41,892 nucleotides of DNA from a virus (taxonomy: Duplodnaviria > Caudoviricetes): positions 1 to 41,892 of the IMG/VR virus record IMGVR_UViG_3300040985_001119; one strand, written 5' to 3'. Below the pieces are notes generated by a model, which saw nothing but the letters and a program-made list of their open reading frames with translations, ran no database searches and was not told the DNA's origin. The first letter of the stretch is position 1, and each line of letters opens with the position of its first letter. Position numbers and translations under genes: made by a program. Below are positions 10,595 to 31,537 of this stretch, piece by piece.

Positions 10595-10800
10595 CAGACC
10601 GAGCACCGAAGGATAATCTGTGGCACGTAACGGACTATGACGGCAGTATCCAGGTGGTGATAACTACGACCTGTGAGGCTATGGCAGATGTGGTCATCTT
10701 TTCACATATGCATGATGGCAAGAGGGTTGTCGATGCCGCCTTCCCGAACTACAGGAGTGTACGGTTGGGGGTTATTCCTTTGACTCCTGACGACTCGTAG
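10591..10800 (+). CDS. Hypothetical protein
   Basis: ATGA overlap, GGGGG RBS. Confidence 0.5.
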   Translation: MTDRAPKDNLWHVTDYDGSIQVVITTTCEAMADVVIFSHMHDGKRVVDAAFPNYRSVRLGVIPLTPDDS

Positions 10801-10808
10801 TGCATATT
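10780..10808 (+). promoter_or_regulatory. Candidate promoter of the methyltransferase leader
   Basis: TTGACT-N17-CATATT immediately before the structured leader. Confidence 0.4.
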
Positions 10809-10812
10809 GTAA

Positions 10813-10905
10813 GTCCCGGCGGGTAGCTCCTGCTAATCTGGACACATATGCCCCACTTCAGTGCCTCATTCACTGGGGTGGGGCTACACTAAATGAGGAG
10901 TGTAG
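10813..10905 (+). ncRNA. Structured 5' leader with kissing loops sequestering the SD
   Basis: 14-bp hairpin 10850-10884 (loop CCTCATT) and hairpin 10885-10904 (loop AAATGAGG); loops complementary over 7 nt. Confidence 0.65.
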
Positions 10906-10906
10906 A

Positions 10907-11840
10907 ATGATCTGTAATGCTGATGCACGACAAATTCCCCTAAGTAATAATTCCGTTCAATGTGTCATAACGTCCCCGCCCTATTTCGGTTTAAGAGACT
11001 ACGGCGTCGGCGGTCAAATCGGCCTTGAGGATTCCCTTGAGGATTACATCGAGGCTTTGTGCTGTGTCTTTGACGGCTTGTGGGCTGCCTTGAGGGATGA
11101 CGGCACTGTGTGGTTGAATTTAGGTGACAGTTATGCAGGAAACAATTCGAGGGCTTCCCACGGGGGGCGGGCAGGATTCGGTACACCTCGGGAATGTATC
11201 GTAAAGCGAGGAACTAAATCTAAGGACCTAATGTTCGTGCCTCATAGGGTAGCGATTGCCCTACAGGAGAGAGGGTGGTACGTCAGGCAGGACATTGTGT
11301 GGCACAAGCCTAACCCGATGCCTGAGAGCGTTACAGATCGTTGTACGAGGGCGCATGAGTACATCTTCATGCTTACTAAGTCTCCGAGGTACTACTATGA
11401 TGCTGCTTCTATCAGTGAGCGTGCACAGCCGCATCTCGGTAAGGTACTTGATGTGCGATCAAGTGGAACAGGTTTAGCGCGTGCCGGTATAAGTGGCAAC
11501 CCTGATAGAGCAGGTAATTTTCTTTCAACTAACGGCTTTGCTAACAAGCGATCTGTCTGGACTGTAACAACGAAGCCCTTCTCTGGTGCTCACTTTGCGA
11601 CATTCCCCCCCTGATTTGGTAGAGCCGATGATATTAGCAGGGTGTCCCGAGGGTGGTGTCATCCTCGATCCGTTCTGCGGGTCTGGTACGGTAGGGATGG
11701 TGTGCAGGAAACATTCACGCAAGTTTGTAGGTCTGGATTTGTCGATGGAATACTTGTCTACTCTGGCCCTTCCGAGATCGGAACAGCAGCAGACAAAAGC
11801 GGCAATCGAAGAACTCCCCTTGTTCGGGGGCATAGAATGA
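10907..11840 (+). CDS. Site-specific DNA methyltransferase (N4-C/N6-A, beta class), split by a +1 frameshift at 11605-11614
   Basis: VITSPPY catalytic motif and HFATFPP in frame 0; DLVEPMILAGCPEGGVILDPFCGSGT SAM-binding motif in the +1 frame. Confidence 0.88.
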
Positions 11841-12235
11841 TGGAGCGAGGCAGGATAATCATGAGCAGACAAGTCTTCTATGACATCAAGAAGAGGTATC
11901 CACAGTCTCCGCATTTGTATGAGGTCTATACTCATCTTGTCTTTCAGGCGTCCTATCATCCTGAAATGATGGGTAGTTTTGACACTACTAATATGGATAT
12001 TTCTGAGGATCTCGACCTGTCTTACGGCAAGGTTCGGAGTGCTATCCGGAGACTCAAAAACATGGGCATGATTACGGTGAAAAAGAGGAGTGTTGGGGGA
12101 GAGAACGTGGGCATTCGGGTGACGATTCAGGACTACGAAATGCTCCATCGAGCGTTTGAGGACAGAACAGACCCCAGAGCAGACCTCCGTGCATCTCTAA
12201 CCGTAAGTGGCCCAAGCAGTACTGAAGATTCCTAA
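11837..12235 (+). CDS. Winged-helix replication initiator-like protein
   Basis: GRIIMSR, YTHLVFQA, DISEDLDLSYGKVRSAIRRLKNMGMI and VTIQDYE resemble phage replisome-organiser N-termini. Confidence 0.6.
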   Translation: MMERGRIIMSRQVFYDIKKRYPQSPHLYEVYTHLVFQASYHPEMMGSFDTTNMDISEDLDLSYGKVRSAIRRLKNMGMITVKKRSVGGENVGIRVTIQDYEMLHRAFEDRTDPRADLRASLTVSGPSSTEDS

Positions 12236-12343
12236 AAAGCCACAGAACAGACCCCATGACAAACAAGTACTTTAAGCAAGGTGTTAAGTAACAGTACAAG
12301 TACAAGTTCTCGTATCTGTACCAACCTGTAGTACCACAGTACT
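12162..12343. repeat. Iteron-like repeats (candidate replication origin)
   Basis: ACAGAACAGACCCCA at 12162 and 12242; seven GTAC within 12218-12343. Confidence 0.45.
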
Positions 12344-12364
12344 TAGAAAAGAGAGGGAGAAATT

Positions 12365-12724
12365 ATGATGAAGCTAAGACGAACGAGTGAGAAGTTTATG
12401 GAACGCGATACGGCAGGATTTACCTCAGACGATGAAAAACGTGTTTGGGACGAGGGATTGAAAGACGGCATCCTCTTAGGACTACGTGAAGGTATGCTTG
12501 TAACTCTGCGTAGCATAAGGGATATGGATTGGAGGACATACGATGGACCGAATGATTTCATGGAAGAGATCAGGGACGAGATAAAGTCGGGTAGCCTGGT
12601 TCGTAGGTATTCGGACAACGGGAAGGATTGGCTCAGTACAGTGGGTGAGGTCCGGGGCAAGCGAACGGGCGTTCCGGGAGTGAACTCAATTTCGGTAGCA
12701 GTCCAGGGGGTGGATCATGAATAA
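12365..12724 (+). CDS. Hypothetical protein
   Basis: GGGAG RBS; 119 aa. Confidence 0.55.
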   Translation: MMKLRRTSEKFMERDTAGFTSDDEKRVWDEGLKDGILLGLREGMLVTLRSIRDMDWRTYDGPNDFMEEIRDEIKSGSLVRRYSDNGKDWLSTVGEVRGKRTGVPGVNSISVAVQGVDHE

Positions 12725-13049
12725 GTGGCTCAAGAAGTATTGGGAGGCGAATACTCCGGAGGAGGAGGTTATGGCTCTGGAGATGATGGCAGAGATGTCA
12801 CTTACTGGTGGGGCTAAGGAAATCCGCAGGCTGACGATGGAAGAGGTGTTGGACCGCACGGAGAGAGCATACAAAGGTCCAAATGCTATGTGTGATTTGA
12901 GAACATGGCTCAAGCGTGAGGCCAAGCCGAAAGATGAGAAGCGCATCGAGGTCTTGAAGGAGGTGCGGGAGAAAATGAAGTATCAACACAATAACCGAGA
13001 GTGTGTGAATGACCTTGAGGATTGGTTAAGAGAGGAGATAGGGGAATGA
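12717..13049 (+). CDS. Hypothetical protein with internal duplication
   Basis: EEV...DLRTWLKREA and KEV...DLEDWLREEI. Confidence 0.55.
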   Translation: MNKWLKKYWEANTPEEEVMALEMMAEMSLTGGAKEIRRLTMEEVLDRTERAYKGPNAMCDLRTWLKREAKPKDEKRIEVLKEVREKMKYQHNNRECVNDLEDWLREEIGE

Positions 13050-13243
13050 ACTTGACGCTTGAAGGGACGGATCACCTTACATACTGGACTTCTGAGATCT
13101 CAGAGTACAGGCATCATGAGTCCGATGGTACATGGGAGAAGCTGGTAGGTCCGGCGTGGGTTATTGTTTCGGAGACCGTTGAATTGGATCGGGCTGCTAA
13201 CGATGTTGTCCGGGCAGAGGGCTTGCTCTTCAAAGCAAACTGA
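13046..13243 (+). CDS. Hypothetical protein
   Basis: ATGA overlap. Confidence 0.5.
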   Translation: MNLTLEGTDHLTYWTSEISEYRHHESDGTWEKLVGPAWVIVSETVELDRAANDVVRAEGLLFKAN

Positions 13244-13515
13244 TGCCCAAACTTCCGAAGGTTAAGAAATTCTATCCGAAGGGCATGAAGAAAACCACGA
13301 AGGTTCGGCATATGTTGTTCGGTGAGCAGAGTGGTTTTGAGATCGGGAGGTCGAATGCGATGGAGGAATTGAAAGACCTGCCTCTTGATAAACTTCGGCA
13401 ATCGAGAGACCACTTGAAGATGATGTGTGAGAAGTTTTTAGTGAACCCGGAGGATCGCGGAAGGATCTCAGCTTTGAGAGAGTTGATCTTCGCCAAGTCC
13501 GAGGAGCTGTCTTAA
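13243..13515 (+). CDS. Hypothetical basic protein
   Basis: TGATG coupling. Confidence 0.5.
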   Translation: MPKLPKVKKFYPKGMKKTTKVRHMLFGEQSGFEIGRSNAMEELKDLPLDKLRQSRDHLKMMCEKFLVNPEDRGRISALRELIFAKSEELS

Positions 13516-13629
13516 ATCAACGCTTACCCCTGAGTGGACTCCAAGTACCTTAAATTGGAGATCGTGGCGAAAACGATAGCGCAAGGACGATAGAATCGCA
13601 AATTCAATCCAACTTTGAGGAGTAATGGT

Positions 13630-13902
13630 ATGATAACCGTGGGGAATTTTAGAATCCGTAGATATGACGAGCATAATATAGTGGTCGAGGAGTTTCGTAA
13701 AGGTGGCAAGATGGTGGCCGGAAAGATGTCGAAAGATGGGTGGCGTTTCTGTGGGTACTGGGGCAGGCTTGAGCCGATCTTGTCTTTCCTGATTGCGAAG
13801 GGTGTGGATGAAGCGGAGACATTGCAGGAATTGTCGAATAAGATCGAGTGGATAAAGGCAGAGATAGAGAATACGGTGGATGTAGAAAAGATTGGGGCGT
13901 GA
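13630..13902 (+). CDS. Conserved-type phage hypothetical protein
   Basis: GAGGAG RBS; FRIRRYDEHNIVVE...WRFCGYWGRLE pattern. Confidence 0.55.
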   Translation: MITVGNFRIRRYDEHNIVVEEFRKGGKMVAGKMSKDGWRFCGYWGRLEPILSFLIAKGVDEAETLQELSNKIEWIKAEIENTVDVEKIGA

Positions 13903-14707
13903 TGTGAGTGAGATAGTAGCGTTGGACGTGAATGTGTACAATCGGTTGATGGAATTTGCGTTGGCAGGGGAAGAGGCAGAGAAGGACTTGAGGAGGAATA
14001 TTGACAAGCTGGTATGGAGTAAGTGGTCGTTCGGAAGGTGGATCTTGGAGAATGAGTTGTCAGTGGGGGATATGGCGCAGCGTCTCAAAATAGACGGCGT
14101 ATCAGGATGGGATAAATCTGAATGTCATCGGGCGGTGAAGTTCTCCAGGGATTATTCGGAAGAGCAGGTACGGGGTGTATTACATCAGCAGTATTCCTGG
14201 TGGGGGATTAAGACGAAGCTCCTTCCGACTCCTAAAGAGAGGGTGGAGAGGGGTGCAGATATGTCTCTGACGGGGCATGACGAGATCCGCAGGGCTATCC
14301 CGGATATGGATCAGGACCAGAAGGATTCAGCAGCGGGCCATTTGCTTGCGGAGATCTCTGATAGTGCGGAGATACTTGAGGCGTTGGGCCATCCTGTAGG
14401 GGAAGTCGGAGAAGTGGTAGGCTACCACAGTGAGAATGTGGATAACTTGTCACCAAAAGTGTCGCATAAAGTATTCGGGGATTGGATAAGGGCGCAATCT
14501 TGTATTGTATGTGGGAAGGAGGGCGATCTCCACTTCCACCATTACCCCAAGACTAAAGGGGCAGGTGGAGCGGACGACCGTGGGCTGCCGTTGTGCGGAG
14601 TTTGTCATTCGGAGGCCCATCAAATTGGTATAAAATCGTGGAGCGATCTGTACTGGCGAGAGGTATTGGAGTTTCTACAGTCTAATCTTGCCCGGGCGTT
14701 ATCCTGA
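13892..14707 (+). CDS. Protein with C-terminal HNH-like Zn nuclease domain (DUF968-like)
   Basis: WIRAQSCIVCG...HFHHYPKTKGAGGADD..LPLCGVCHSEAH; start uncertain. Confidence 0.7.
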   Translation: MGRDVSEIVALDVNVYNRLMEFALAGEEAEKDLRRNIDKLVWSKWSFGRWILENELSVGDMAQRLKIDGVSGWDKSECHRAVKFSRDYSEEQVRGVLHQQYSWWGIKTKLLPTPKERVERGADMSLTGHDEIRRAIPDMDQDQKDSAAGHLLAEISDSAEILEALGHPVGEVGEVVGYHSENVDNLSPKVSHKVFGDWIRAQSCIVCGKEGDLHFHHYPKTKGAGGADDRGLPLCGVCHSEAHQIGIKSWSDLYWREVLEFLQSNLARALS

Positions 14708-14902
14708 TACCTGATGCCCTTCATGCCCCGTAAAAGTTACTCCCTCTGAGTTGACGAGGACGGGAAAAGAAACGTGTTCGTGGGTCTCGTAGATCGCAAG
14801 GATGGCTTCACGGTGAGTGCTTCCTTCAACCTCTATTACGGTGTGGTATGGCTCTCCAATGTCTTCAACCATGCGTCCGGTAAAAGTTGCAATCCATTTC
14901 AT
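14699..14902 (-). CDS. Early hypothetical protein
   Basis: AGGGGATAAATCATG start context. Confidence 0.6.
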   Translation of the reverse strand: MKWIATFTGRMVEDIGEPYHTVIEVEGSTHREAILAIYETHEHVSFPVLVNSEGVTFTGHEGHQVSG

Positions 14903-14914
14903 GATTTATCCCCT

Positions 14915-15073
14915 TTAGGCTTTCAGGTATTGAGTAGTTACGAGGTCGTCAGGATTGGCGTTGCGTAGCTCTGCTGCCACGGTAAACGCTTTGCGGAGGT
15001 CGTAAGGCCCGTAGAAGGTCCGGTCCATCCTGAAACCTGTGTTGTGCGCTCTTATGACTACGAGATTTTGCAT
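14915..15073 (-). CDS. Early hypothetical protein (52 aa, not in ORF track)
   Basis: MQNLVVIRAHNTGFRMDRTFYGPY...; AGGGGTATATCATG. Confidence 0.55.
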   Translation of the reverse strand: MQNLVVIRAHNTGFRMDRTFYGPYDLRKAFTVAAELRNANPDDLVTTQYLKA

Positions 15074-15082
15074 GATATACCC

Positions 15083-15241
15083 CTAATGTGGAATAGATTG
15101 AGATTGCGGTGCGTCACGATCTACGAGATTGCGGACGTATTCTGCTACGGATAGTCCGGCGTTGGACGCCTGCGTTTGAAACTGGTCTTTCTCAGCCTGG
15201 GACACTCTGATTTGTATCAATTTGTCGTTTTTCATTCTCAT
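15083..15241 (-). CDS. Ribbon-helix-helix DNA-binding protein (MobC/CopG-like; not in ORF track)
   Basis: KLIQIRVSQAEKDQFQTQASNAGLSVAEYVRNLV matches the RHH pattern. Confidence 0.7.
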   Translation of the reverse strand: MRMKNDKLIQIRVSQAEKDQFQTQASNAGLSVAEYVRNLVDRDAPQSQSIPH

Positions 15242-15283
15242 ATTGTCACCTGTATCTCAGCTTGGGATTGGTTAGTTGGTGTG

Positions 15284-15502
15284 TCATGGTTTCCTCGGAT
15301 ATGTGATGGTATTGTGGGCGATCTGGAATGTTTCCTGCGTTTCCAGGTTTACGAGTTCAAGCGTATCGTCCGGGAAGCACTCATTAGCGAGGATGTCGAA
15401 TTCCACTGTGTCGGCGTGGATTGTGTTCAGGTACATCTTCCACGGGTTGTGCTTGTGAATTTCAGAGATTGGCGTTCCGTTAAAGTGCGTTATCCTGTAC
15501 AT
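15284..15502 (-). CDS. Early hypothetical protein
   Basis: 72-aa ORF with GGGAG RBS. Confidence 0.5.
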   Translation of the reverse strand: MYRITHFNGTPISEIHKHNPWKMYLNTIHADTVEFDILANECFPDDTLELVNLETQETFQIAHNTITYPRKP

Positions 15503-15681
15503 GATTTGATTTGCTCCCTTTTAATACGTGTAGTGTGGCCGTCCTGCTGAAACGATGCGAAGAATACTTTTGGCAAGTGATTCCAGAAGGCTATAGCGTC
15601 AAGCCTATCCTGCTTTTTGTCGCACGTATCGAACTGATTGACATATGAGCCTGTAGTAGTCCGCCAGCGTATCTTATACAT
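15490..15681 (-). CDS. Early hypothetical protein
   Basis: GAGGT RBS. Confidence 0.5.
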   Translation of the reverse strand: MYKIRWRTTTGSYVNQFDTCDKKQDRLDAIAFWNHLPKVFFASFQQDGHTTRIKREQIKSCTG

Positions 15682-15722
15682 AAGACCTCTGGTCCTTTTA
15701 ACGTCTTGACCAGGACAACAGG

Positions 15723-16118
15723 TTAGGAGATGGCGGCTTCGTATCGTTCTGTTGACTCTCTGAGTCTTGAATCAAATCCCGCTGTCATAGATCCTTCATC
15801 TCCGCGCATTCGTATCTGGATATATACGACTTCGTTTCCGGTTGCTGCGTTCTGCCAGGACTTTGTTTCTCCGTTTATCTCTGTGGGCTTTACTTCGGCG
15901 CGAGAGAGATTCAGGCGAGTAACGGCGTTCTCAGCGTCTACAACGTCCTTCAATCGAGACATTACAGCGTCTATGAACTTTGAGTTTCCACAGATTCTGA
16001 TTCCACAAGCCCCGTAGGTCGAGCCCTTGGCATTAGATTCAAGCGGTGTGAAGTATTTCAGGACGTTCTGATCTTTTGGCGTATCGTTCCAATGTTCAAT
16101 AGCTTCGGCCTTTTTCAT
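15723..16118 (-). CDS. Early hypothetical protein
   Basis: GAGGGGTATATCATG start; 131 aa. Confidence 0.6.
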   Translation of the reverse strand: MKKAEAIEHWNDTPKDQNVLKYFTPLESNAKGSTYGACGIRICGNSKFIDAVMSRLKDVVDAENAVTRLNLSRAEVKPTEINGETKSWQNAATGNEVVYIQIRMRGDEGSMTAGFDSRLRESTERYEAAIS

Positions 16119-16204
16119 GATATACCCCTCGTAAATGTTCCAGAATTGGAACAAAGCCCCGTATGAGTTATGAACTCTTAACCTAAAGTGACGGGGCGTG
16201 AATC

Positions 16205-16495
16205 TTAATACTCTACTCGTGAATCTTCGTATTCGGCGGCTTCGTCCGTGTACTCAGGAAAGATTTTTTTCATTGTGTCCGTAAAAGGTTCAGTTATCCG
16301 TATCTGCAATGACCTATGACCCCATGCATTGTCGGGGGCTATATCTGAAACGTTGCCAACCGACTTATCACAGGCCCATTTGTCAATAATATGCCACCCG
16401 TTGGACCAACTCACGATTCCATTAGGTGTCAGTTGAGCGTTGCAAGTATTTTTACCGTCTGTGAATGTCTGTGGAGCAATCTGTTTGACTGTCAT
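16205..16495 (-). CDS. Early hypothetical protein
   Basis: GGGGTTTTATTATG start. Confidence 0.55.
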   Translation of the reverse strand: MTVKQIAPQTFTDGKNTCNAQLTPNGIVSWSNGWHIIDKWACDKSVGNVSDIAPDNAWGHRSLQIRITEPFTDTMKKIFPEYTDEAAEYEDSRVEY

Positions 16496-16686
16496 AATAA
16501 AACCCCATTCTAATACGGTCCAACATTAGACCGATACACGCTATTAGATTTGATCCTACACCCATACAGTAAAAACAAGCTGTCCCGTATCGCGTAGCGT
16601 GTAGCCAAGCAGTACTAACAATGGCAAGACTCTTGACGTGTCGTTCGTTCGGTTGTCAAGGAACAGAGAGACTGTTTGAGATCAAA

Positions 16687-16726
16687 GCCTCTTGTGGGAT
16701 TCGAACCCACACAACCCATTAGAGGC
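16687..16726 (-). ncRNA. tRNA-like minihelix (acceptor stem + T arm only)
   Basis: GCCTCT-A-ATGGGTTGT-GTGGG-TTCGAAT-CCCAC-A-AGAGGC. Confidence 0.6.
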
Positions 16727-16732
16727 ATAAAG

Positions 16733-16999
16733 CTAAATCATGTTTCTAAGCTGGCGCGTATTGCGTTCAACGAACTTCTCAACATCGGGCCTAAGTTGAG
16801 ATTGGTGCTTTGAAGTTGTTACGCTGTATTTGTCTGTGTTGCGATACCATCGGCCCGCTTTGAAGATATACATAGGAAAGTGATAACCGTAGGAATAGAC
16901 AACGTACATTTTGCCTTCTTTGCGTCCGAATGTGTTGTTACCTTGGAAATCTGTCTTTGACTCTACCAGCCTACGCGCATTGCAGTTTGACGTTTTCAT
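16733..16999 (-). CDS. Conserved-type early phage protein
   Basis: YVVYSYGYHFP...KYSVTTSKHQ motif pattern; GGGGGTTTATCATG. Confidence 0.65.
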   Translation of the reverse strand: MKTSNCNARRLVESKTDFQGNNTFGRKEGKMYVVYSYGYHFPMYIFKAGRWYRNTDKYSVTTSKHQSQLRPDVEKFVERNTRQLRNMI

Positions 17000-17057
17000 G
17001 ATAAACCCCCATAAAGGTGAAGAACTGAACAACTGTAGCAATGATATATATAACACG

Positions 17058-17207
17058 TCAATACGGGTGGACGTACTGTGCTGCCGTTAATCCGTTTACT
17101 AAGGACTGAACAACTAAGGTTAAGCGCATTGATGGTGTTTGATACCCCGCATAGTCTGTGCAGAAGCCTGTAAGCCGGTAACGTCTGATATATGCTCGAG
17201 AACTCAT
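17058..17207 (-). CDS. First small early protein
   Basis: AGGAGG RBS just downstream of the promoter. Confidence 0.45.
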   Translation of the reverse strand: MSSRAYIRRYRLTGFCTDYAGYQTPSMRLTLVVQSLVNGLTAAQYVHPY

Positions 17208-17248
17208 GACTGCCTCCTGTGGGTGGTTGCGCTTCTTAAATCTGTTGA

Positions 17249-17277
17249 ATACTAACATGTAATTACACATAGGTCAA
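17249..17277 (-). promoter_or_regulatory. Early leftward promoter with palindromic operator-like spacer
   Basis: TTGACC-N17-TAGTAT with TGn extension; TGTAATTACA palindrome in the spacer. Confidence 0.55.
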
Positions 17278-17367
17278 TACAAATCGTAATCTTTCTTGCC
17301 TATCCTTACCTTATACCCCATATTCACAGCATCTAACCAACATTGAGACACGCCGATAGGAGACAAC

Positions 17368-17913
17368 ATGACAAAGGTCATAACGCCAGATGAACATCAG
17401 CAGATTGCCATATATACGGAGATATACCAACATAACGGAAAGCCAATGTGGGCACACATAGGCAGGCTGCTCAACATGCCGCCAACAACAATAGAGACGA
17501 TACACACGAAGAGACCAGAGGTGCTCGCTAAGGCACGTGAAGGACTCGACATGGAAGCTATAACACGTGACCATACGGAGGCCATTACAAATCAGATACG
17601 CTCTGGAAGCAATGCCTTAGCGGTTCAAGGGCAGGCGAGAGCCCTGGAATTGATGGCTGATCCTGACTCAAAACCGAGAGAATGGAAGGACGCTGCATTA
17701 GCTACGTCTATTCTTACGGATAAGCAGGCTGATGTGCACGGTAGGCCGTCCAGATACAGTGCAGCACACCAGAAGATCGAGCACACCGGCAACGTATCAG
17801 TGACTATACAACTGGCAGGCAGGCCCACAGAGGAGCTTATCGAGTCGTGCAAGGCAGACCAATTGCCAGGCCGTACAGAGATCGCTAACGTCAAGGGAGA
17901 CAAGGCGGTATAG
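17368..17913 (+). CDS. Putative terminase small subunit
   Basis: N-terminal HTH (WAHIGRLLNMPPTTI), helical middle (AALATSILTDK), C-terminal QKIEHTGNVSVTI typical of TerS; followed by a non-coding stretch. Confidence 0.6.
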   Translation: MTKVITPDEHQQIAIYTEIYQHNGKPMWAHIGRLLNMPPTTIETIHTKRPEVLAKAREGLDMEAITRDHTEAITNQIRSGSNALAVQGQARALELMADPDSKPREWKDAALATSILTDKQADVHGRPSRYSAAHQKIEHTGNVSVTIQLAGRPTEELIESCKADQLPGRTEIANVKGDKAV

Positions 17914-18411
17914 GCATCAGTTAGAGTGATGGTTTAAGTGTCGAAAAGGTTGACACTTTTATATTTTGTTTGGGACTCCTGCTGTTATTATATCCCTGTT
18001 TTAGCGAGGAGTATTTGCTTCGATGTTTTTGGCAGTCATTTTGTCCGAGTGTATTCTGTTGTCATTGTTGGCGTTACGAGTCATATTTCGGGGTTCTGTC
18101 GTTTGTTTTGTCCAGTATCTTGGCGTACAGCACTGTGTCTTGTTTGTTACATTACGAGACGTGTCTTTAGTTTAGTCTGGCGGTACTACGGAAGTGCATG
18201 TATGGTTGTGTAAGTGATTTGGTTTGGCAGGGTGTCTTTAGGCTTTTAAGACTCATACTCTTTATAGTCTTTATACGTATGCGCGTGCGGGCGGGGTAGG
18301 GTTAGGCTGATATTGGGGTAAATCTTACGTTGTGTCTTACTTCGGATCTGAGTGGGTCTTGGCTACCTGGGACTTTGAGCCTAAGTTCGTTAATTTAGAG
18401 GGGGTTGGAAA

Positions 18412-18588
18412 ATGACCATTGAGAAAGCGAAAAGGTTGATTGCTAGCGCAAAGGGTCAGGTTACTCAGGAGGGCCGGTGGGAGTTTGTTGCTTACCCCCA
18501 CAACGACGGGGCAGAGCGGACAGGTTTCGGTTGGCCTGTTGGAACTTCTGAGGCATCGAAGTTGGAGGTGATTATGCGGGTGGAGTAG
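18412..18588 (+). CDS. Small hypothetical protein
   Basis: 58 aa, GAGGGG RBS. Confidence 0.45.
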   Translation: MTIEKAKRLIASAKGQVTQEGRWEFVAYPHNDGAERTGFGWPVGTSEASKLEVIMRVE

Positions 18589-18667
18589 AAGCGGGTCTCC
18601 ACCGTAGGGGACAAGTAGACTTTGGGTAATGTTTACAGTAAGTTACAAAATACGTGATTTGGGGGTT

Positions 18668-18808
18668 ATGATGAACTGGAAGCCAGGTGTAGAAGTCGAG
18701 ATAACGGTTAGTGCGGATCTGGCACGAAAGCTGGAGAAGATGTGGGCTGCGGAGGAGGCGAAGATGAAAAGCTGGATCGATACGGACCTGTGGGGCAAAA
18801 CTACTTGA
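18668..18808 (+). CDS. Small hypothetical protein
   Basis: 46 aa, GGGGGT RBS. Confidence 0.45.
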   Translation: MMNWKPGVEVEITVSADLARKLEKMWAAEEAKMKSWIDTDLWGKTT

Positions 18809-18832
18809 CGTGTTGTTTCAGGGATGTACATT
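18805..18832 (+). promoter_or_regulatory. Sigma70-like promoter
   Basis: TTGACG-N16-TACATT. Confidence 0.65.
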
Positions 18833-18856
18833 GATACTGTCCAGTAAGTGAACATA

Positions 18857-18980
18857 GCGTCGCACAACGCGTAGGTATTTAGGTCTCCGGTGTGCGCTGG
18901 AGGCCTAAATTGCTTTGGGGGACGAGCATTCTTCTCGGTGTCCCTACCAGCTTTATCGTTGACGAGCCAGCCGGGAGGAG
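18857..18980 (+). ncRNA. Structured leader: kissing loops plus H-type pseudoknot
   Basis: Loops CGCACA/TGTGCG; pseudoknot stems 18918-23/18940-45 and 18929-39/18970-80. Confidence 0.6.
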
Positions 18981-18991
18981 GGGGAGTTCTT

Positions 18992-19156
18992 ATGAAGGAA
19001 TTGGTTGATGGTGTGTGGGAGATGCCAGCGGAGGAGTTGGTGGATGGCCTCTTGAGTACAATCCTTACGGGGTCAACTACGATCCTTGTCTTTCTTGTGG
19101 TGGTCCTTGTAGTCCTGAAGACGGCCGAGCACATCTGGAAACGGGGTAGCAAATGA
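18992..19156 (+). CDS. Small single-TM protein
   Basis: ILVFLVVVLVVL; GGGGAG RBS. Confidence 0.55.
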   Translation: MKELVDGVWEMPAEELVDGLLSTILTGSTTILVFLVVVLVVLKTAEHIWKRGSK

Positions 19157-19476
19157 CTGACAACGAGTACGCGGCTACGGAGATCATGGGGTATACGGTA
19201 GAAGCCTGTAGATCTCTTGATAAGAGTTATTACGTTAGCGATAAGGGCATAGAGTGGGGCAAGGTCGATTGCTGGCTTCCTGACTCCAACTACGAGCAAC
19301 TCAGGCTTGTGGAGGAGAAGGTAGGGCATGCTTGGTCGTGTGCTCATAGGATTGACAAAAGATTCGTGTTCCGGTCAAGTGGTGTCTTGGTGAGTGGTGA
19401 TTCCGAACTCGCCGCCCGTCTTGAGTTAGCCCGAAAGTGTCATCGTCAGAGTATCACGGAGGACTCCGATGCTTGA
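19153..19476 (+). CDS. Phage ABA-sandwich-like domain protein
   Basis: AATEIMGY...WLPDSNYEQLRLVEEK pattern. Confidence 0.45.
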   Translation: MTDNEYAATEIMGYTVEACRSLDKSYYVSDKGIEWGKVDCWLPDSNYEQLRLVEEKVGHAWSCAHRIDKRFVFRSSGVLVSGDSELAARLELARKCHRQSITEDSDA

Positions 19477-19636
19477 ACTCCTCGCCGAAGGATATGCGGT
19501 TCAAAAGCAAATGGGCTATCCCGCTCAAAACTACTGGATGGAGTATTTCTTTTGTGCGGTGTCGGAACACTGTAGGAATGGTGGCAAGATGACGTTTAAG
19601 TTGGACAAGGGGGCTTTCGATGCTTCTGGCGATTGA
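19469..19636 (+). CDS. Small hypothetical protein (55 aa)
   Basis: GGAGG RBS; tiles the gap. Confidence 0.45.
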   Translation: MLELLAEGYAVQKQMGYPAQNYWMEYFFCAVSEHCRNGGKMTFKLDKGAFDASGD

Positions 19637-19952
19637 CATTATTAACGCTCTTCGGAAGTCCGACCCCTATATCGAGACCATATACACACAGGGCGGATGT
19701 TATCAGCTCCACCTCTTTTTGAAGGCGTTGTACCCCGAGGCTCTTCCGGTGCGAGATAAGACATTCGCCCATGTGGGTACGGTGATAGACGGCCAGTGCT
19801 ACGACATTCGAGGAGTAGTGGGTTGGTCGTGGTATGTCATGGATAACGAGGAGGTAGCAATAGCGGAGAAATGGTCGTTCGCAAGATCCCAAATGCTCCA
19901 ACTCGGAGAATGCCCTGTTTGTGAAGAACCTCTATTGTTGGAGGTGGCATAA
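19620..19952 (+). CDS. Hypothetical protein with possible Cys-His-Asp papain-like triad
   Basis: YTQGGCYQL...HVGTVIDGQCYDIRG; C-terminal CPVC. Confidence 0.55.
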   Translation: MLLAIDIINALRKSDPYIETIYTQGGCYQLHLFLKALYPEALPVRDKTFAHVGTVIDGQCYDIRGVVGWSWYVMDNEEVAIAEKWSFARSQMLQLGECPVCEEPLLLEVA

Positions 19953-20446
19953 TGTTACTCGCCATAGACCCCGGCAACGAGATGAGCGGATGGGTTCTAC
20001 TTGATGGATATACTCCGGTGGAGTTCGGGAAGGACTACAATGAGGTGGTCCTTGATCGGGTCGATAGCGCGGGGTTATTCCCTAAACATGATCCTGACGT
20101 CCTCGTAGTGGAGATGGTGGCCTCATACGGGATGGCGGTCGGGCAAACTGTCTTCGATACGTGCGTTTGGATTGGGCGCTTTTGCGAACGGTTTAACAAT
20201 GGCCCTGACGAGTTCTTGTACCGTAAAGACGTGAAGATGAACCTCTGCGGGAATAACGCCGCCAAGGACTCCAACATACGCCAGGCTCTCGTAGATCGCT
20301 TCTCCTACGACAGACACAAGGCTAAAGGAGGCAAGGGGACGGTTAAAGATCCCGGCTTCTTCTACGGCTTTAAGGCTGATATTTGGCAGGCGTACGGATT
20401 GGGAGTTTCCTACCTTGACTTACAATCTAAGAATGGTACATTATAG
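19952..20446 (+). CDS. RuvC-like Holliday junction resolvase
   Basis: LLAIDPG..SGWV, LVVEMVASYGMAVG, AKDSNIRQAL, ADIWQA. Confidence 0.75.
   Translation: MLLAIDPGNEMSGWVLLDGYTPVEFGKDYNEVVLDRVDSAGLFPKHDPDVLVVEMVASYGMAVGQTVFDTCVWIGRFCERFNNGPDEFLYRKDVKMNLCGNNAAKDSNIRQALVDRFSYDRHKAKGGKGTVKDPGFFYGFKADIWQAYGLGVSYLDLQSKNGTL
20415..20442 (+). promoter_or_regulatory. Sigma70-like promoter
   Basis: TTGACT-N16-TACATT with TGn extension. Confidence 0.65.
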
Positions 20447-20473
20447 GTGCTTGAACAATGCGAATACAAACTT

Positions 20474-20548
20474 ATAAAAGAACCGAGTTTTCCAGTGCCG
20501 TGAGGTCTGGAGCGTTTTCGCAGACGCAAGCAGACTCGGTTTTTTTAT
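20474..20548 (+). ncRNA. Three-way-junction leader upstream of the HNH endonuclease
   Basis: 17-bp closing stem, GTGA (GNRA)-capped hairpin and a second hairpin; ends in T7 next to the SD. Confidence 0.65.
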
Positions 20549-20559
20549 TGAGGTGTACT

Positions 20560-21030
20560 ATGAAGAGGCCGTTTAAAAGAAGGGGACTGCCAGAGGATCG
20601 ATTCAGGGCAAAGATCCAGGTTAATGAGGAAACTGGTTGTCATGAGTGGACCGCTTATTGCGACCAGAAGGGGTATGGGGCATTCAGCTTTGATAGAAAA
20701 GTGGTCAAGGCACATAGGTTTGCTTACGAACTTGCTAAAGGGCCTATCCCGGAAGGATTGCATATCGATCATCTCTGTCGGAACAAGAGTTGTGTCAATC
20801 CCGAACATTTGGAGGTTGTTACTCTTGCCGAGAATAACCGGAGATACAGTCAGTCCAGAACACATTGCATCAAAGGCCATGAACTTACTGAGGCAAACAC
20901 TTATACCTTTAGTAGACGCAGAGCTTGTCGTAGATGCCATATTGATAGATCTGAAGTGTGGAGCAAGGCTAATCGGGATAAAAGAAACCGAGCGTGGAGA
21001 GCATGGAGCGCAAGAAAGCGGGGTGTGTGA
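20560..21030 (+). CDS. HNH homing-type endonuclease
   Basis: GCHEW, KAHRFAYE, IDHLCRNKSCVNPEHLEVVTLAEN, THCIKGH; GAGGTG RBS. Confidence 0.9.
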   Translation: MKRPFKRRGLPEDRFRAKIQVNEETGCHEWTAYCDQKGYGAFSFDRKVVKAHRFAYELAKGPIPEGLHIDHLCRNKSCVNPEHLEVVTLAENNRRYSQSRTHCIKGHELTEANTYTFSRRRACRRCHIDRSEVWSKANRDKRNRAWRAWSARKRGV

Positions 21031-21033
21031 AAG

Positions 21034-21477
21034 ATGGCTGAACTTGCGGGTAAGTTTGAAAGTGTAAGTCAGGAATGGGAAACACCAGACGATTTGTATG
21101 AGCGGCTGGATGTACTCTATGGCTTTACTCGGGATGTGTGTGCTGCGGAGGACAATAAGAAGTGCGATGACTTCTGGTCCACTTCAAACTCTTGTTTGGA
21201 CAAGGAATGGGACGGAGTAAATTGGATGAACCCTCCTTACAAGGACTTGAAGAAGTTCGTCCAAAAAGCCCATGATGAGGCATTTCGGGCAGTCACGGTG
21301 TGTCTTATTCCAGCCAGAACGAATACTAAATGGTGGCATGAACTTTGTATGCAGGGAGAGGTTTCTTTTATCTGTGGCCGTCCCAAGTTTAAGGGTTGTG
21401 TGCATGGGTTGCCTCAGCCCCTGGCTCTTGTGGTGTTTGGTCAAGGGAGTGGGGTTATGGAGTCTTTTTATCTTTAG
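21034..21477 (+). CDS. Phage DNA N6-adenine methyltransferase (Dam-like family)
   Basis: EWETP, DVCA, WMNPPY, LIPARTNTKWW, GRPKF. Confidence 0.9.
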   Translation: MAELAGKFESVSQEWETPDDLYERLDVLYGFTRDVCAAEDNKKCDDFWSTSNSCLDKEWDGVNWMNPPYKDLKKFVQKAHDEAFRAVTVCLIPARTNTKWWHELCMQGEVSFICGRPKFKGCVHGLPQPLALVVFGQGSGVMESFYL

Positions 21478-21490
21478 ATTTACAGGCTTC

Positions 21491-21568
21491 TACCGGGCCT
21501 TAGCCGACAGTGCCTTAATCAGCGGATAGGTCTATTCCGTGGGGGTTGAGGTGAGCCAAGGTCCGGTA
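21491..21568 (+). ncRNA. Long irregular hairpin preceding the tRNA
   Basis: TACCGGGCCTT/AAGGTCCGGTA outer stem, GCCTTAATC/GGTTGAGGT middle stem, GCGGA/TCCGT inner stem; many G-U pairs. Confidence 0.5.
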
Positions 21569-21575
21569 CGATAAA

Positions 21576-21657
21576 GCTCCCGTGGCGAAACTGGAAGACG
21601 CAACAGACTTAAAATCTGTGGCCTAACGGCGTGGAGGTTCAAGTCCTTCCGGGAGCA
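21576..21657 (+). tRNA. trnL: tRNA-Leu (anticodon UAA), CCA not encoded
   Basis: GCTCCCG/CGGGAGC acceptor, ACAGA-CTTAAAA-TCTGT anticodon arm, long variable arm, GGTTCAAGTCC T arm, discriminator A. Confidence 0.93.
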
Positions 21658-21665
21658 TTCAACAA

Positions 21666-21726
21666 GGGGCGAGATACCCCACCCCCCTCGGCGTGATCTC
21701 GCCTCGTCATGATAACGCGCCGGGGG
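21666..21726 (+). ncRNA. H-type pseudoknot between the tRNA and the next RBS
   Basis: S1 21666-75/21696-705 (10 bp), S2 21685-95/21716-26 (11 bp), then AAAGGAGATATATG. Confidence 0.6.
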
Positions 21727-21737
21727 AAAGGAGATAT

Positions 21738-21944
21738 ATGGACGATTGGAGATTGTACTCAGGTTCTGTGGCAATTGATTTGAATGAGCCAGGCCCGACT
21801 CTTGGTGAGATCATCGTTCAAAAGCAGGAGGACTATTTGAGGAGCGGGGTGAAGTACATGAGACAATTGCTCCACGCACACCTCCTACCTGAAGGTAAGG
21901 CTGTGGAGGTCCAGATGGGAGTAAGTCATTCACCCCCGGAATAA
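21738..21944 (+). CDS. Hypothetical protein
   Basis: Strong AAGGAG RBS. Confidence 0.55.
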   Translation: MDDWRLYSGSVAIDLNEPGPTLGEIIVQKQEDYLRSGVKYMRQLLHAHLLPEGKAVEVQMGVSHSPPE

Positions 21945-22458
21945 ACCATACGGGAAGGACCAGTTAGACGTTCCTGACCGAGATGTCATCGGTAAAGCAG
22001 GGGAGGATGCTTTTGATATCTGGGGAGGTGAATATGTTTATATGCCCTATAAGGATATTGTACTCCCTATGGGTGATCCTGGGTGGGACGCGATAACTCC
22101 TGCTGGCCTTGTAGATGTAAAGACGTACAGGAAGCCGTGGAATCTCTTGAGGGAGTATGCTGTCCCAGAGGTGTCTGACATCTACGTGCTTGCACAGTAT
22201 TGGGATGCGGTAACTCCGGTTAAGTTCTTAGGGTGGGACTGGGCGTTTCAGATGCTGGCATGGCCCTCCAAAGACAACGGGCATGGGAAGATAAACCACA
22301 ATATGCCTGCGAAGTATCTTCAGTCTATGGATAAGCTCATGGACCTCTTCAAGGGGATACCGTTGGGTGAACCAGCCGAGAACTACATCAAGATATTTGA
22401 AGAGGGTAAGGGTGGAGACTTCGCTCGGAAGGCTCGATTGGAGAGAGAAAGTAGTTGA
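21928..22458 (+). CDS. PD-(D/E)xK-type nuclease-like protein; start unresolved
   Basis: IGKAGEDAF...DPGWD...VDVKT motifs; the first motif lies upstream of the first ATG (22042). Confidence 0.55.
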   Translation: MHPRNKPYGKDQLDVPDRDVIGKAGEDAFDIWGGEYVYMPYKDIVLPMGDPGWDAITPAGLVDVKTYRKPWNLLREYAVPEVSDIYVLAQYWDAVTPVKFLGWDWAFQMLAWPSKDNGHGKINHNMPAKYLQSMDKLMDLFKGIPLGEPAENYIKIFEEGKGGDFARKARLERESS

Positions 22459-22459
22459 C

Positions 22460-22801
22460 ATGATGGTTGATAACGTGTATAGACAGAGTATCTACGAAGA
22501 CGGAACATGGTTTACGCCGAATATACTAAGCATAGTTGAAGGAATGAAGATCATCCACGAGGGGTGGGCGATGCGACACATCTGTGATTGCGGACATTTC
22601 ACCGATACAGGCCCTGGCGATTGGACGTGCCGGTGGTGTGGGAAGCCTTCAAATCCCGTGGAAGAAACGACGTCCTGGACCGTATCTGGTGCTAACGGAA
22701 AACAATATAAGTACGAGGGCCAACGCCCCGAGATAGGCGACAAAGTTAAGATCGTCCGTCCGGGGCGTGATGTTTATGTGAAGGTGGCTTCCGTTGCGTG
22801 A
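22460..22801 (+). CDS. Zn-ribbon protein
   Basis: CDCGH...WTCRWCG. Confidence 0.55.
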   Translation: MMVDNVYRQSIYEDGTWFTPNILSIVEGMKIIHEGWAMRHICDCGHFTDTGPGDWTCRWCGKPSNPVEETTSWTVSGANGKQYKYEGQRPEIGDKVKIVRPGRDVYVKVASVA

Positions 22802-23090
22802 CTCTCTCACTGAAATGCACTACCATGAGACGATCTACCGCAAGGGTGGATTGAAAGAGTATCGGGAGCAAGATGTTCCCGTGATAGACTCAGTGGGCAC
22901 GACGACGAGGGAAGCCGTGCCTGTAGACTGCTTTATGTGCCACAAGGAGTTCTATGTACGCGAGGGCGAAGAGAACCTCTGTTTTTCGTGCAGGGACTCG
23001 GTTAAAGGTGTCCGGAAGCGGTACGATAGAATGATGAAGAGGTTGGAGAAGGCCGAGAAGATGGCGAATAACGAAGTTACTGATTGGTAG
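22794..23090 (+). CDS. Zn-finger protein
   Basis: CFMCHKEF...LCFSCR. Confidence 0.55.
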   Translation: MRDSLTEMHYHETIYRKGGLKEYREQDVPVIDSVGTTTREAVPVDCFMCHKEFYVREGEENLCFSCRDSVKGVRKRYDRMMKRLEKAEKMANNEVTDW

Positions 23091-23173
23091 AGGGCGCAGT
23101 ACCCACAACTTAAACGTACTTGACCGGCATTATAGGATGCCTATACATCCTTTATGTCGGTTTTTTGCGTTTA

Positions 23174-23290
23174 GGGGAGGCGGCTTGCGGAAGGGGTCCT
23201 CCCCCACACTTCGGTGTGCTACTGCTCTTTCCGCGAAGGCGGCGATACTCCGGGGTCTGGGACGCCGCTCAACCCTCCTCCCAGACTCCG
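23174..23290 (+). ncRNA. Tandem H-type pseudoknots in the late-operon leader
   Basis: PK1 23174-80/23198-204 and 23187-96/23225-34 with a C(UUCG)G hairpin; PK2 23239-44/23263-68 and 23251-62/23279-90. Confidence 0.65.
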
Positions 23291-23300
23291 AAAAGGAATT

Positions 23301-23411
23301 ATGATGAAAATGATACCTCAGTATAAATCGACAGCAGTGAAGACGTCCAAGAAGGTCAGCAAGGAACAAGCTCCCGGAAACTCTAAGGGTGGGATAAAAT
23401 CTCTGAAGTAG
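23301..23411 (+). CDS. Short basic leader ORF (36 aa)
   Basis: AAGGA RBS directly after PK2; Lys-rich; overlaps the TerL 5' end. Confidence 0.45.
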   Translation: MMKMIPQYKSTAVKTSKKVSKEQAPGNSKGGIKSLK

Positions 23412-24871
23412 ACGTTCTCTTTAGCCCGAACTCTCCTTATCAGGAGTTGTTCTGCACGACAACAGCCAGGGAAGTCTTGGGCGGTGGGTTACCAGGTGGA
23501 GGCAAATCGCAGTGCGGAATGGCGATACCCCTCTGTCACACATACGACGGAACGAACGTCCTGGTGCATCACCCCAGATTTGAGATGGTGGTGTTCCGGA
23601 GGAAAGAGACACAGCTCGGCAACCTGATAAAGTTCGCAGAGGAGCTTTATACCCCTTTAGGTGCGGTACATTCGGACCAGAAGATGATGTGGACGTTTCC
23701 ACAGGGTGGTATCTGCAAATTAACACATATGAGGACCGAGAACGATTGGGATCAGGTGCAGGGACACGAAGTGACGATAATGCTCTTCGATGAGGTAGCC
23801 GAGTTCTCCGAGAATCAGTACATAATGGCTACACTCTGGGCACGTCCCGGAGCACCTGAACTACCGAGTTACATAAGATGTACGTCTAACCCCCGTGGAC
23901 CGGGAGTATCGTGGGTTAAGAAGAGGTTCGTAAAACGATGCACACCCTTCGACCTACATGAAATACCGACAGGAAAGACCGAGGCCGGAGAGGATTTACT
24001 TTCAACGAGGCAATTTATACCGTGGGGATTTAGGCAGAACCCCGACCTTGGATTCAAGAGTCAGGAGTACGAGGCTGAATTAGCGAAAATACCGAATCCG
24101 ACATTAAGAAAGGCGATGCTCTCCGAGAATGTGATGGACGCCTGGGACACGATGATCGGTTCTTTCTTCGATTTTGACGGAGCAAGACACATCGTCACGA
24201 AGGACAAGGAGCAGACGATACGTGACTACCTCTCTCAAGTCCCTACAACGAGAATAGAAGCGTTCGATTACGGAGGAAATGCCCCTACGTGTATGCTCTG
24301 GATGGAGATGGACCCCGAAGGAGTCATTTACGTTACCGACGAGCACTATGTGGAAGATGAGCCTTTAGAAGATGTCCACATACCCCTGATGAAGGAGATC
24401 AGGCATCGCACGGGAGCAGGAGAGATAACGGTTGCTGACCCTTCGATAAAAGCACGTAAGACTAAGTATATCTCGTACACAGATAGAAGCATAGCGCAGA
24501 TAATGACCGATGCGGGGTTCTTCATTAAGGGTGCTGACAACAGGCACGAACAGGGGTTTGAGCAGATACATCACGGATTGTTTACAGATGGGACAACATC
24601 CCCGAAGATACAGATCTTTGAGAGCTGCATAAACCTGATCGAGGAGATGCTTGAGGCTGTAGTCTCCGACAACGACCCGAATAAGATTTCAAAGGAGTGC
24701 TCCGACCACGCGATAGATCCTTTAAGATACGGGCTTATGCACTTGGTATCTCCCGTTCCAGACAGAGAAAGAGACGGGATACCCGCAGGAAGTGCCGGAG
24801 CAGCCTTACAGGATATACAGTTTAAGAAGCACTTTCACCGAAGAGGTCGATTCGCACGGAGTTTGAGATGA
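23399..24871 (+). CDS. terL: Terminase large subunit
   Basis: Walker A GGLPGGGKS, Walker B MLFDEV, coupling motif TSNP, nuclease AFDYG and DHAIDPLRY; adenine-binding segment FSPNSPYQELF lies upstream of the called TTG at 23447. Confidence 0.92.
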   Translation: MSEVDVLFSPNSPYQELFCTTTAREVLGGGLPGGGKSQCGMAIPLCHTYDGTNVLVHHPRFEMVVFRRKETQLGNLIKFAEELYTPLGAVHSDQKMMWTFPQGGICKLTHMRTENDWDQVQGHEVTIMLFDEVAEFSENQYIMATLWARPGAPELPSYIRCTSNPRGPGVSWVKKRFVKRCTPFDLHEIPTGKTEAGEDLLSTRQFIPWGFRQNPDLGFKSQEYEAELAKIPNPTLRKAMLSENVMDAWDTMIGSFFDFDGARHIVTKDKEQTIRDYLSQVPTTRIEAFDYGGNAPTCMLWMEMDPEGVIYVTDEHYVEDEPLEDVHIPLMKEIRHRTGAGEITVADPSIKARKTKYISYTDRSIAQIMTDAGFFIKGADNRHEQGFEQIHHGLFTDGTTSPKIQIFESCINLIEEMLEAVVSDNDPNKISKECSDHAIDPLRYGLMHLVSPVPDRERDGIPAGSAGAALQDIQFKKHFHRRGRFARSLR

Positions 24872-31497: not shown

Positions 31498-31503
31498 TTC
31501 CAC

Positions 31504-31528
31504 GCGGGGGAGGGAAACTTCCCCCGCA
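31504..31528 (+). promoter_or_regulatory. GC-rich hairpin between the capsid genes and the glycosyltransferase (attenuator or stabiliser)
   Basis: GCGGGGGAG-GGAAA-CTTCCCCCGC with no U tract, directly before AGGAGG. Confidence 0.5.
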
Positions 31529-31537
31529 GGAGGGTAT

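Follow-up and report, generated by a model that had tools for sequence, protein, structure and literature searches.

Why would a phage place several large and mutually unrelated RNA folds immediately before its genes? The question is raised by a 41,892-base stretch of DNA, IMG/VR record IMGVR_UViG_3300040985_001119 (hereafter the window), which is an entire phage contig and was detected in marine metagenome runs. An initial annotation had paired five of its intergenic segments into kissing loops, H-type pseudoknots or a three-way junction, and had proposed that they form a genome-wide set of sensing switches that gates translation starts. We found that all of these pairings are present in the sequence, that the five messenger RNA (mRNA) leader structures are mutually unrelated, and that their common denominator is position: the elements begin soon after a promoter-like motif (segments 1, 2, 3 and 5) or after the 3' end of a tRNA gene that encodes no CCA (segment 4). 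We tentatively favor the reading that four coaxial knots of 17–21 base pairs (bp) protect new 5' ends against 5'-dependent decay, with segment 1 acting as a lock on a Shine-Dalgarno (SD) sequence and segment 3 as an attenuator. The structures, the tRNA and the promoter-like motifs described below are all on the + strand. Published sources are cited by PMC accession.

The folds were compared with background by a purpose-written scorer for H-type knots and kissing hairpins, which sums stacking energies and weights them toward the weaker helix; its geometry was fixed after the initial annotation was known, and loop penalties are not included. Each segment was set against 200 dinucleotide shuffles of itself, and the window against 20 block-shuffled genomes. 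When the scorer was slid along the whole window, the five best H-type matches on the + strand were those at 21666, 23238, 23174, 10850 and 18918, and the two best kissing matches were those at 10850 and 18857; all of these top matches are intergenic and on the coding strand. The window has three H-type matches scoring -38 or below, all within 1.6 kb, and none of the shuffled genomes has any; at -30 or below it has five, and the shuffled genomes have a mean of 0.6 and a maximum of 2. A kissing score of -27.2 was never reached in the shuffled genomes, but one of -23.0, which is that of segment 2a, was reached in 6 of the 20, so the 2a kiss is not secure on score alone. In the per-segment control, none of the 200 shuffles equalled knots 4, 5a and 5b or the segment 1 kiss. 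The claim that the tertiary structure exceeds chance thus held for segments 1, 2, 4 and 5, both in the shuffles and by whole-window rank, and failed for segment 3, which retains its three-way junction only. The recurrence of geometry was borne out as well: a 14-bp hairpin kisses a short one twice, and there are four H-type knots with stems of 7–10 and 10–13 bp and an L2 of 0. Among other phages (83 loci, 1.02 Mb, + strand) 3 matches scored -38 or below and 37 scored -30 or below; the 313 kb of similar GC content among these held one at -38 or below, and the matches in loci of up to 56% GC were mostly inside open reading frames (ORFs). Two distant phages of unrelated sequence carry intergenic knot-like or kissing folds shortly 5' of SD-like sites (L108:3720-3773 and L119:13846-13900). 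The + strand outscores the - strand in folding in all five segments and, as had been noted, G-U pairs are more numerous on the + strand in all five regions tested, with the caveat that the + strand is itself G-skewed.

Location within the genome is equally restricted. Only 4 of the 22 intergenic gaps score -30 or below, a comparable knot was found before none of the 32 other + strand gene starts (best score, -22.9), and four of the five segments are confined to 4.5 kb, so that the set cannot be called genome-wide. The motif TTGAC-N17-19-YAYAT matches the window five times against 0.73 expected (1 of 100 shuffles), and four of these matches precede segments 1, 2, 3 and 5, which agrees with the proposed placement of four segments behind TTGAC-type motifs and of the fifth behind the tRNA; a generic sigma-70 scan was not enriched (19 matches against 19.3). 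A fold at 13085-13150 behind another TTGAC was dropped (z +0.6). The distance from the last paired base to the AUG is 11, 11, 11 and 10 nucleotides (nt) in segments 2–5, respectively, and because pairing stops there the SD lies just outside the fold. Each downstream gene has an SD-like purine run. The folds had been said to end at, or to cover, the next SD; they do abut the SDs and segment 1 covers its own, but four of the five leave the SD outside. As far as sequence can tell, then, the predicted knots rank far above background, lie behind promoter-like motifs or the CCA-less tRNA, and keep a 10–11-nt gap.

Segment 4 (21666..21726) has the top H-type score of the window. It is predicted to form an H-type knot with stems of 10 and 11 bp and an L2 of 0, giving 21 coaxial pairs, and it is positioned 8 nt past a tRNA-Leu(UAA) without encoded CCA (21576..21657) and 11 nt before the ATG at 21738. 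In sequencing run X1 the sole difference listed inside a segment, A21681C, falls in loop L1 of this knot; strain variation was drawn from 4 of the 12 runs, and runs with a small share were not used as evidence. Directly 5' of the tRNA is a long irregular hairpin (21488..21572; z -3.9, 0 of 200 shuffles) that contains G-U pairs and is a possible processing site. Farther downstream, the gene at 21928-22458 (+) has an apparent AUU start at 21928 behind an SD, and its homologue P0067 (82% identical) has a methionine exactly there. Contigs of run X11 match the window at 21885-21924 and at 19153-19189 and then run on into different genes, which argues that a related mosaic phage is present in the X11 sample.

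Segment 5 consists of two knots in tandem. Knot 5a (23174..23236) is a three-stem H-type knot with stems of 7 and 13 bp, an L2 of 0 and a 5-bp UUCG hairpin in L3, a layout that we take to be similar to that of the three-stem SARS-CoV-2 knot; knot 5b (23238..23290) is an H-type knot with stems of 7 and 12 bp and an L2 of 0. Coaxial stacks of 20 and 19 pairs are predicted for the two, and 5b ends 10 nt before the ATG at 23301, which begins a 36-aa lysine-rich ORF at the head of the terminase-portal-capsid operon. Abutting 5a is a long irregular hairpin of about 25 bp (23107..23175; z -8.6, 0 of 200 shuffles), with G-U pairs and an internal U6 run, which contains the promoter-like motif of segment 5 (23120-23148); this hairpin and the one before the tRNA had been overlooked, and to that extent the initial list of structures was incomplete. 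In T7 the early mRNA carries RNase III processing hairpins, which are long, irregular and intergenic, as are the two predicted here; the latter would stand directly before a tRNA or a knot. Two contigs from the RNA library X11 cover 23109-23404 without differences, although such contigs cannot prove transcription. A perfect 6-bp inverted repeat with a 6-nt spacer (23135-23152) lies across the promoter-like motif and could be a DNA operator too.

The start of the terminase large subunit gene downstream also appears unusual (23387-23447, +). Likeness to protein P0002 extends upstream of the first TTG, and ATG, GTG and TTG are absent between that codon and the in-frame stop upstream. The likely start is an AUC at 23399, behind a purine-rich SD and overlapping the end of the 36-aa ORF, with a -1 shift from that ORF as the alternative; X1 and X11 contigs match the window across this region. 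One 47-aa member of the P0002 terminase cluster (P0033) has no visible resemblance to it and is probably mis-clustered.

Segment 2 follows the promoter-like motif at 18805..18831 and has two parts. In 2a (18857..18910) a 4-bp hairpin (18857-18870) and a 14-bp hairpin (18877-18910) have loops complementary over 6 bp, and in 2b (18918..18980) an H-type knot with stems of 7 and 10 bp and an L2 of 0, predicted to stack 17 coaxial pairs, ends 11 nt before the ATG at 18992 of a 54-aa hydrophobic ORF. The 2a kiss was reached by 1 of 200 shuffles and the 2b knot by 2 of 200. Knot 2b also covers an upstream GGAGG, and a competing bulged hairpin can form within it. A single relative of segment 2 was found, a 151-nt contig (depth 2.1) of the RNA-library run X11 that aligns with 18850-18920 with 4 differences. 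The listed change, T18884C, makes a U-G of the 14-bp hairpin into C-G if the partner is unchanged. In the 30 letters of the contig's loose 3' end, stem S1 of 2b is kept despite changes to both letters of its 18922/18941 pair, and 9 of the 10 letters of the 5' strand of S2 are retained, the S2 partner being outside the printed letters. Since the competing inner hairpin is also kept, these letters support structure and not the knot specifically. The few strain differences, thin as they are, all point toward selection on RNA pairing.

Segment 1 (10813..10904) appears to be a different device. Behind the promoter-like motif TTGAC-N-YAYAT at 10780..10807, it has a two-helix 5' domain (10813-10843, with outer helix 10813-16/10840-43), followed by two hairpins with loop-loop pairing: the 7-nt loop of a 14-bp hairpin (10850-10884) pairs over 7 bp with 10892-10898, which is the loop of a 6-bp hairpin (10885-10904) that contains the SD of an N6/N4 DNA methyltransferase gene (ATG at 10907). 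Among the five segments this is the only one in which the fold buries the SD, and segment 1 is likely, on this modelled fold, to be a kissing-loop lock on the methyltransferase SD. The repZ/repA knot of IncI1 and IncB plasmids also pairs a hairpin loop with the SD region; in the plasmids the knot promotes translation, for which both an antisense RNA and a leader peptide are required, whereas the segment 1 pairing covers the SD, and neither an antisense RNA nor a leader peptide was seen. Within the methyltransferase gene (10907-11840, +), the reading frame is split by a frameshift that lies in a run of C near 11605. The run is one base shorter in one X11 contig (depth 2), and X1 is the same as the window; phase variation or slippage is possible.

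Segment 3 (20474..20548), behind the promoter-like motif at 20415..20441, is a three-way junction with a 17-bp closing helix that ends in a U-tract, and it lies 11 nt before the ATG at 20560 of an HNH endonuclease gene. Its nested junction is strong (minimum free energy z -6.7; 0 of 200 shuffles as good), but its tertiary pairing has no support, as shuffles reach its kiss in 5 of 200 cases and its H-type pairing in 64 of 200. The GC stem is followed directly by the U-tract; the top is branched, and a simple terminator scan (loops of 3–8 nt) did not list the segment. It is likely, judging from this predicted architecture, to be a terminator or attenuator that restricts how much transcription continues into the HNH and Dam genes. 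In T-even phages homing endonuclease genes have SD-sequestering hairpins; here it is segment 3 that heads an HNH gene.

How might the four knots act? Transcription would start behind the promoter-like motifs and so produce new 5' ends. A tRNA without an encoded CCA usually gets its 3' end by endonucleolytic cleavage, and the RNA beyond the cut then carries a 5'-monophosphate; a cut at the 3' end of the present tRNA would place knot 4 eight nt inside a monophosphorylated mRNA. Additional sites of processing or termination may be provided by the long hairpins at 21488 and 23107. The knots would then act as constitutive shields that impede RNase E scanning, or RNase J, with the SD left outside the fold, and would stabilize the messages of the 18992, 21738 and 23301/terminase operons. 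We rank 5' shielding first because the knots are at predicted 5' ends and because there are three kinds of precedent. Richards and Belasco (PMC9943677) found that RNase E scanning from a 5'-monophosphate is obstructed more strongly as the coaxial stack of an H-type knot grows from 8 to 11 to 15 pairs, and that the three-stem SARS-CoV-2 knot is potent, stem-loops and kissing loops being no obstacle; bacterial RNase J1 is blocked by a folded exoribonuclease-resistant RNA (xrRNA) (PMC5760640); and in T4 the gene 32 knot at -67 stands beside an RNase E cut at -71 in the most stable T4 mRNA (PMC3014915).

The elements would thus function most like RNase E obstacles or xrRNAs, with differences from each. 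They share with the RNase E obstacles the H-type form, the L2 of 0 and the long coaxial stack, predicted here at 17–21 bp as compared with the 8–15 tested, and by prediction a long-stacked H-type knot does stand upstream of a coding region; the tested obstacles were viral or telomerase knots inserted into Escherichia coli reporters (PMC9943677). The xrRNAs of flaviviruses and plant viruses are likewise knot-dependent folds that can block 5'-3' decay, including that by RNase J1, but they are defined by a ring of 15–16 nt round the 5' end and are known from eukaryotic RNA viruses (PMC5760640, PMC8374639); the word 'phage' does not occur in PMC8374639. The gene 32 knot of T4, T2 and RB69 is a coaxial H-type knot in a phage leader near a processed 5' end; it is one gp32-binding operator that lies 67 nt upstream and precedes an A+U-rich tract (PMC3014915), whereas the window has four unrelated knots 10–11 nt from the AUG of genes that are themselves unrelated. 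An operator of the gene 32 type was rejected, as no single-stranded-DNA-binding protein gene lies downstream and there is no long unstructured A+U tract, the 10–11-nt gap including the SD.

A bolder version, which we regard as doubtful, holds that the phage armours its message 5' ends with independently evolved, very large pseudoknots, as a bacterial counterpart of the xrRNAs of eukaryotic viruses, and sets dosage via RNA stability and not through promoters or repressors.

Several observations weigh against 5' shielding. The kisses of segments 1 and 2a are left unexplained by a shield, because kissing loops fail against RNase E (PMC9943677), and the stability of gene 32 mRNA is credited to translation, the role of its knot being to bind the repressor gp32 (PMC3014915). 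Knot 2b is about 80 nt from the predicted start, and 5b sits behind 5a. The knots still overlap the 30S footprint, and with the knots fixed the predicted probability that the SD is unpaired is 0.46–0.66, a value that has no control set. The X11 relative of segment 2 has flanks unlike those of the window, with no promoter on the 5' side; covariation is thin, coming from this one contig with three of its four differences unlisted, and its changes are equally compatible with a simple bulged hairpin of 2b and with the knot. Finally, the nuclease to be blocked may be either RNase E or RNase J.

The strongest competitor, rather unlikely in our judgment, is that the elements are translational attenuators or two-state switches that work independently, each opened by a protein, an antisense RNA, temperature or ribosomal protein S1. 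Such a switch would fit the buried SD of segment 1, the covered GGAGG of 2b and its inner hairpin, which the X11 relative keeps, and the fact that every knot stops at the edge of an SD; the two non-standard starts in the vicinity hint at tight control of translation, and over-expression of a methyltransferase, an HNH nuclease or a terminase is costly. Yet the SD is unpaired in four of the five folds, and neither a partner protein nor an antisense RNA was found. Alternative folds that would switch an SD or a terminator are plausible for segments 1 and 2b and not seen for 5b, which has no listed alternative nested fold within 3 kcal/mol, while the alternatives of segment 4 reuse the same strands.

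It is improbable that the folds are instead stable small RNAs or 3'-end barriers, or decoys acting in trans on host RNA-binding defence proteins. A GC stem followed by a U run is found both in segment 3 and in the 23107 hairpin, a candidate promoter-to-terminator small RNA would span 20449-20548, the tRNA trailer could be read likewise, and the RNA-library contigs over segment 5 agree with this idea; but those contigs may be DNA and show neither ends nor strand, and the strict spacing of 10–11 nt from the AUG speaks for a connection to the gene that follows.

A single regulon of ligand- or protein-sensing switches that runs the middle and late programme, as originally proposed, is very unlikely. 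Recurring geometries and the position of segment 5 at the head of the terminase-portal-capsid operon speak for it, but the segments have no common sequence, only segment 1 buries its SD, no Rfam riboswitch match was found, none of the 32 other starts has such a fold, and the stems are near-perfect Watson-Crick helices with few junction nucleotides for a pocket. Of the functions that the initial annotation had offered for these RNAs, nuclease blocking now ranks first, and a sensing regulon is not supported.

There is even less room for knots that recruit ribosomes, as an element like an internal ribosome entry site (IRES) or as a standby platform, and so raise initiation at the adjacent SD. A multi-knot viral IRES is able to work in bacteria, and the fixed AUG spacing and the tandem knots of segment 5 would suit such a role, but an SD-like purine run already precedes each downstream gene. 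Self-cleaving ribozymes, for example one like theta or hepatitis delta virus (HDV) ribozymes that trims the tRNA, are highly improbable: segment 4 does adjoin a CCA-less tRNA, and in 5a the first stem is 7 bp long and a hairpin stands at the place of HDV P4, but there is no room for P3/L3, no Rfam ribozyme matches, and a loose HDV descriptor gave 0 parses in segments 3 and 4 and was non-specific in segments 1, 2 and 5 (2 of 15 shuffles each). Theta ribozymes by phage tRNAs share with segment 4 a knotted RNA 3' of a tRNA; they are defined by a nested double knot with P3/L3 and a catalytic C in J4/2, whereas here there is no nested double knot and no P3/L3, and the first G is 8 nt from the tRNA end as compared with ±5 (PMC10879173). 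A -1 frameshift signal, which would need a slippery heptamer within an ORF and 5–9 nt ahead of the knot, was rejected, the knots being intergenic and the sole slippery heptamer being the U run of segment 3. Least probable of all is that G-rich and C-rich runs chosen by eye pair by chance, for although the 2a kiss recurs in shuffled genomes, segment 3 has no tertiary support and the scoring was tuned afterwards, the three best knots were unreached in 20 shuffled genomes and the top matches are all intergenic and on the coding strand.

Are these folds members of known families? Rfam 15 at the gathering threshold gave tRNA-Leu only for the whole window, and E-value scans of 18600-23500 and 10600-11100 gave far sub-threshold matches only; hence no strong match to the segments was found. 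The segments are indeed unrelated in sequence, as had been claimed: no repeat family links them in the window, and single-sequence covariance models of segments 1, 2 and 3 gave self-matches only in the window and nothing in 83–88 phage loci. A pattern scan of IMG/VR returned 15 loci with 0 credible homologues, the best look-alike (L006) being rejected because it is inside a 522-aa ORF; further IMG/VR pattern scans gave one locus in a coding region, 0 loci, and 5 loci without the junction. In a scan of JGI metagenomes, a stem of at least 5 bp round the loop motif was found in 0 of 81 loci, and the single match of a GTDB scan (L098) lacked flanking stems and was judged chance. Blastn against phages and plasmids gave the tRNA or chance matches of 19–30 nt only, segment 4 being searched only within a 5.1-kb query. 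A protein-led search in IMG/VR found relatives at 24–38% only; the closer proteins found were a terminase (76%), capsids (63–74%) and P0067 (79–82%). A survey of 10,006 candidates describes many candidate phage RNAs directly 5' of genes, including terminase and methyltransferase genes, and six motifs were absent from those of its supplements that were searched (PMC10690425). The literature searched, which covered few subscription papers, yielded no description of a single phage with several unrelated knots in its leaders.

The phage encodes Erf, a primase-polymerase, a Holliday junction resolvase, HNH nucleases, terminase, portal, capsid and internal virion proteins, and its capsid has a likeness of just 25–29% to those of Mx8-type and other phages. 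Segment 1 is placed in the replication cluster, and segments 2–5 are in the 5.5 kb between the gene at 17368 for a helix-turn-helix (HTH) protein and the gene for the terminase large subunit; two DNA methyltransferase genes are close to the segments, and downstream of the segments lie the methyltransferase gene, the HNH nuclease gene and three small ORFs that match no family significantly. The HTH protein matches viral HTH clusters in the Atlas and is presumed, from its position, to be the terminase small subunit. Directly 3' of its gene is a 498-nt non-coding, G/T-skewed stretch (17914-18411) that is a candidate pac site or genome end. Small leftward genes at 15066-17277 (-), one of which encodes a ribbon-helix-helix protein (15083-15241), have TTGAC promoters, short unstructured leaders and a repeated GGGG-type SD block (repeat family D7). 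Two genes past the capsid, a strong simple GC hairpin (31500-31530, +; z -4.5) overlaps the SD of the gene at 31538.

What sets this phage apart is how densely its very long knots are packed and how constant their distance from the AUG is. According to a 2010 review, the T4-type gene 32 knot may be the sole viral pseudoknot used in translation autoregulation (PMC3014915). Four natural coaxial knots of 17–21 bp, predicted 10–11 nt before an AUG, offer a ready test of phage knots as nuclease shields, and such knots would supply compact parts for stabilizing or insulating mRNA.

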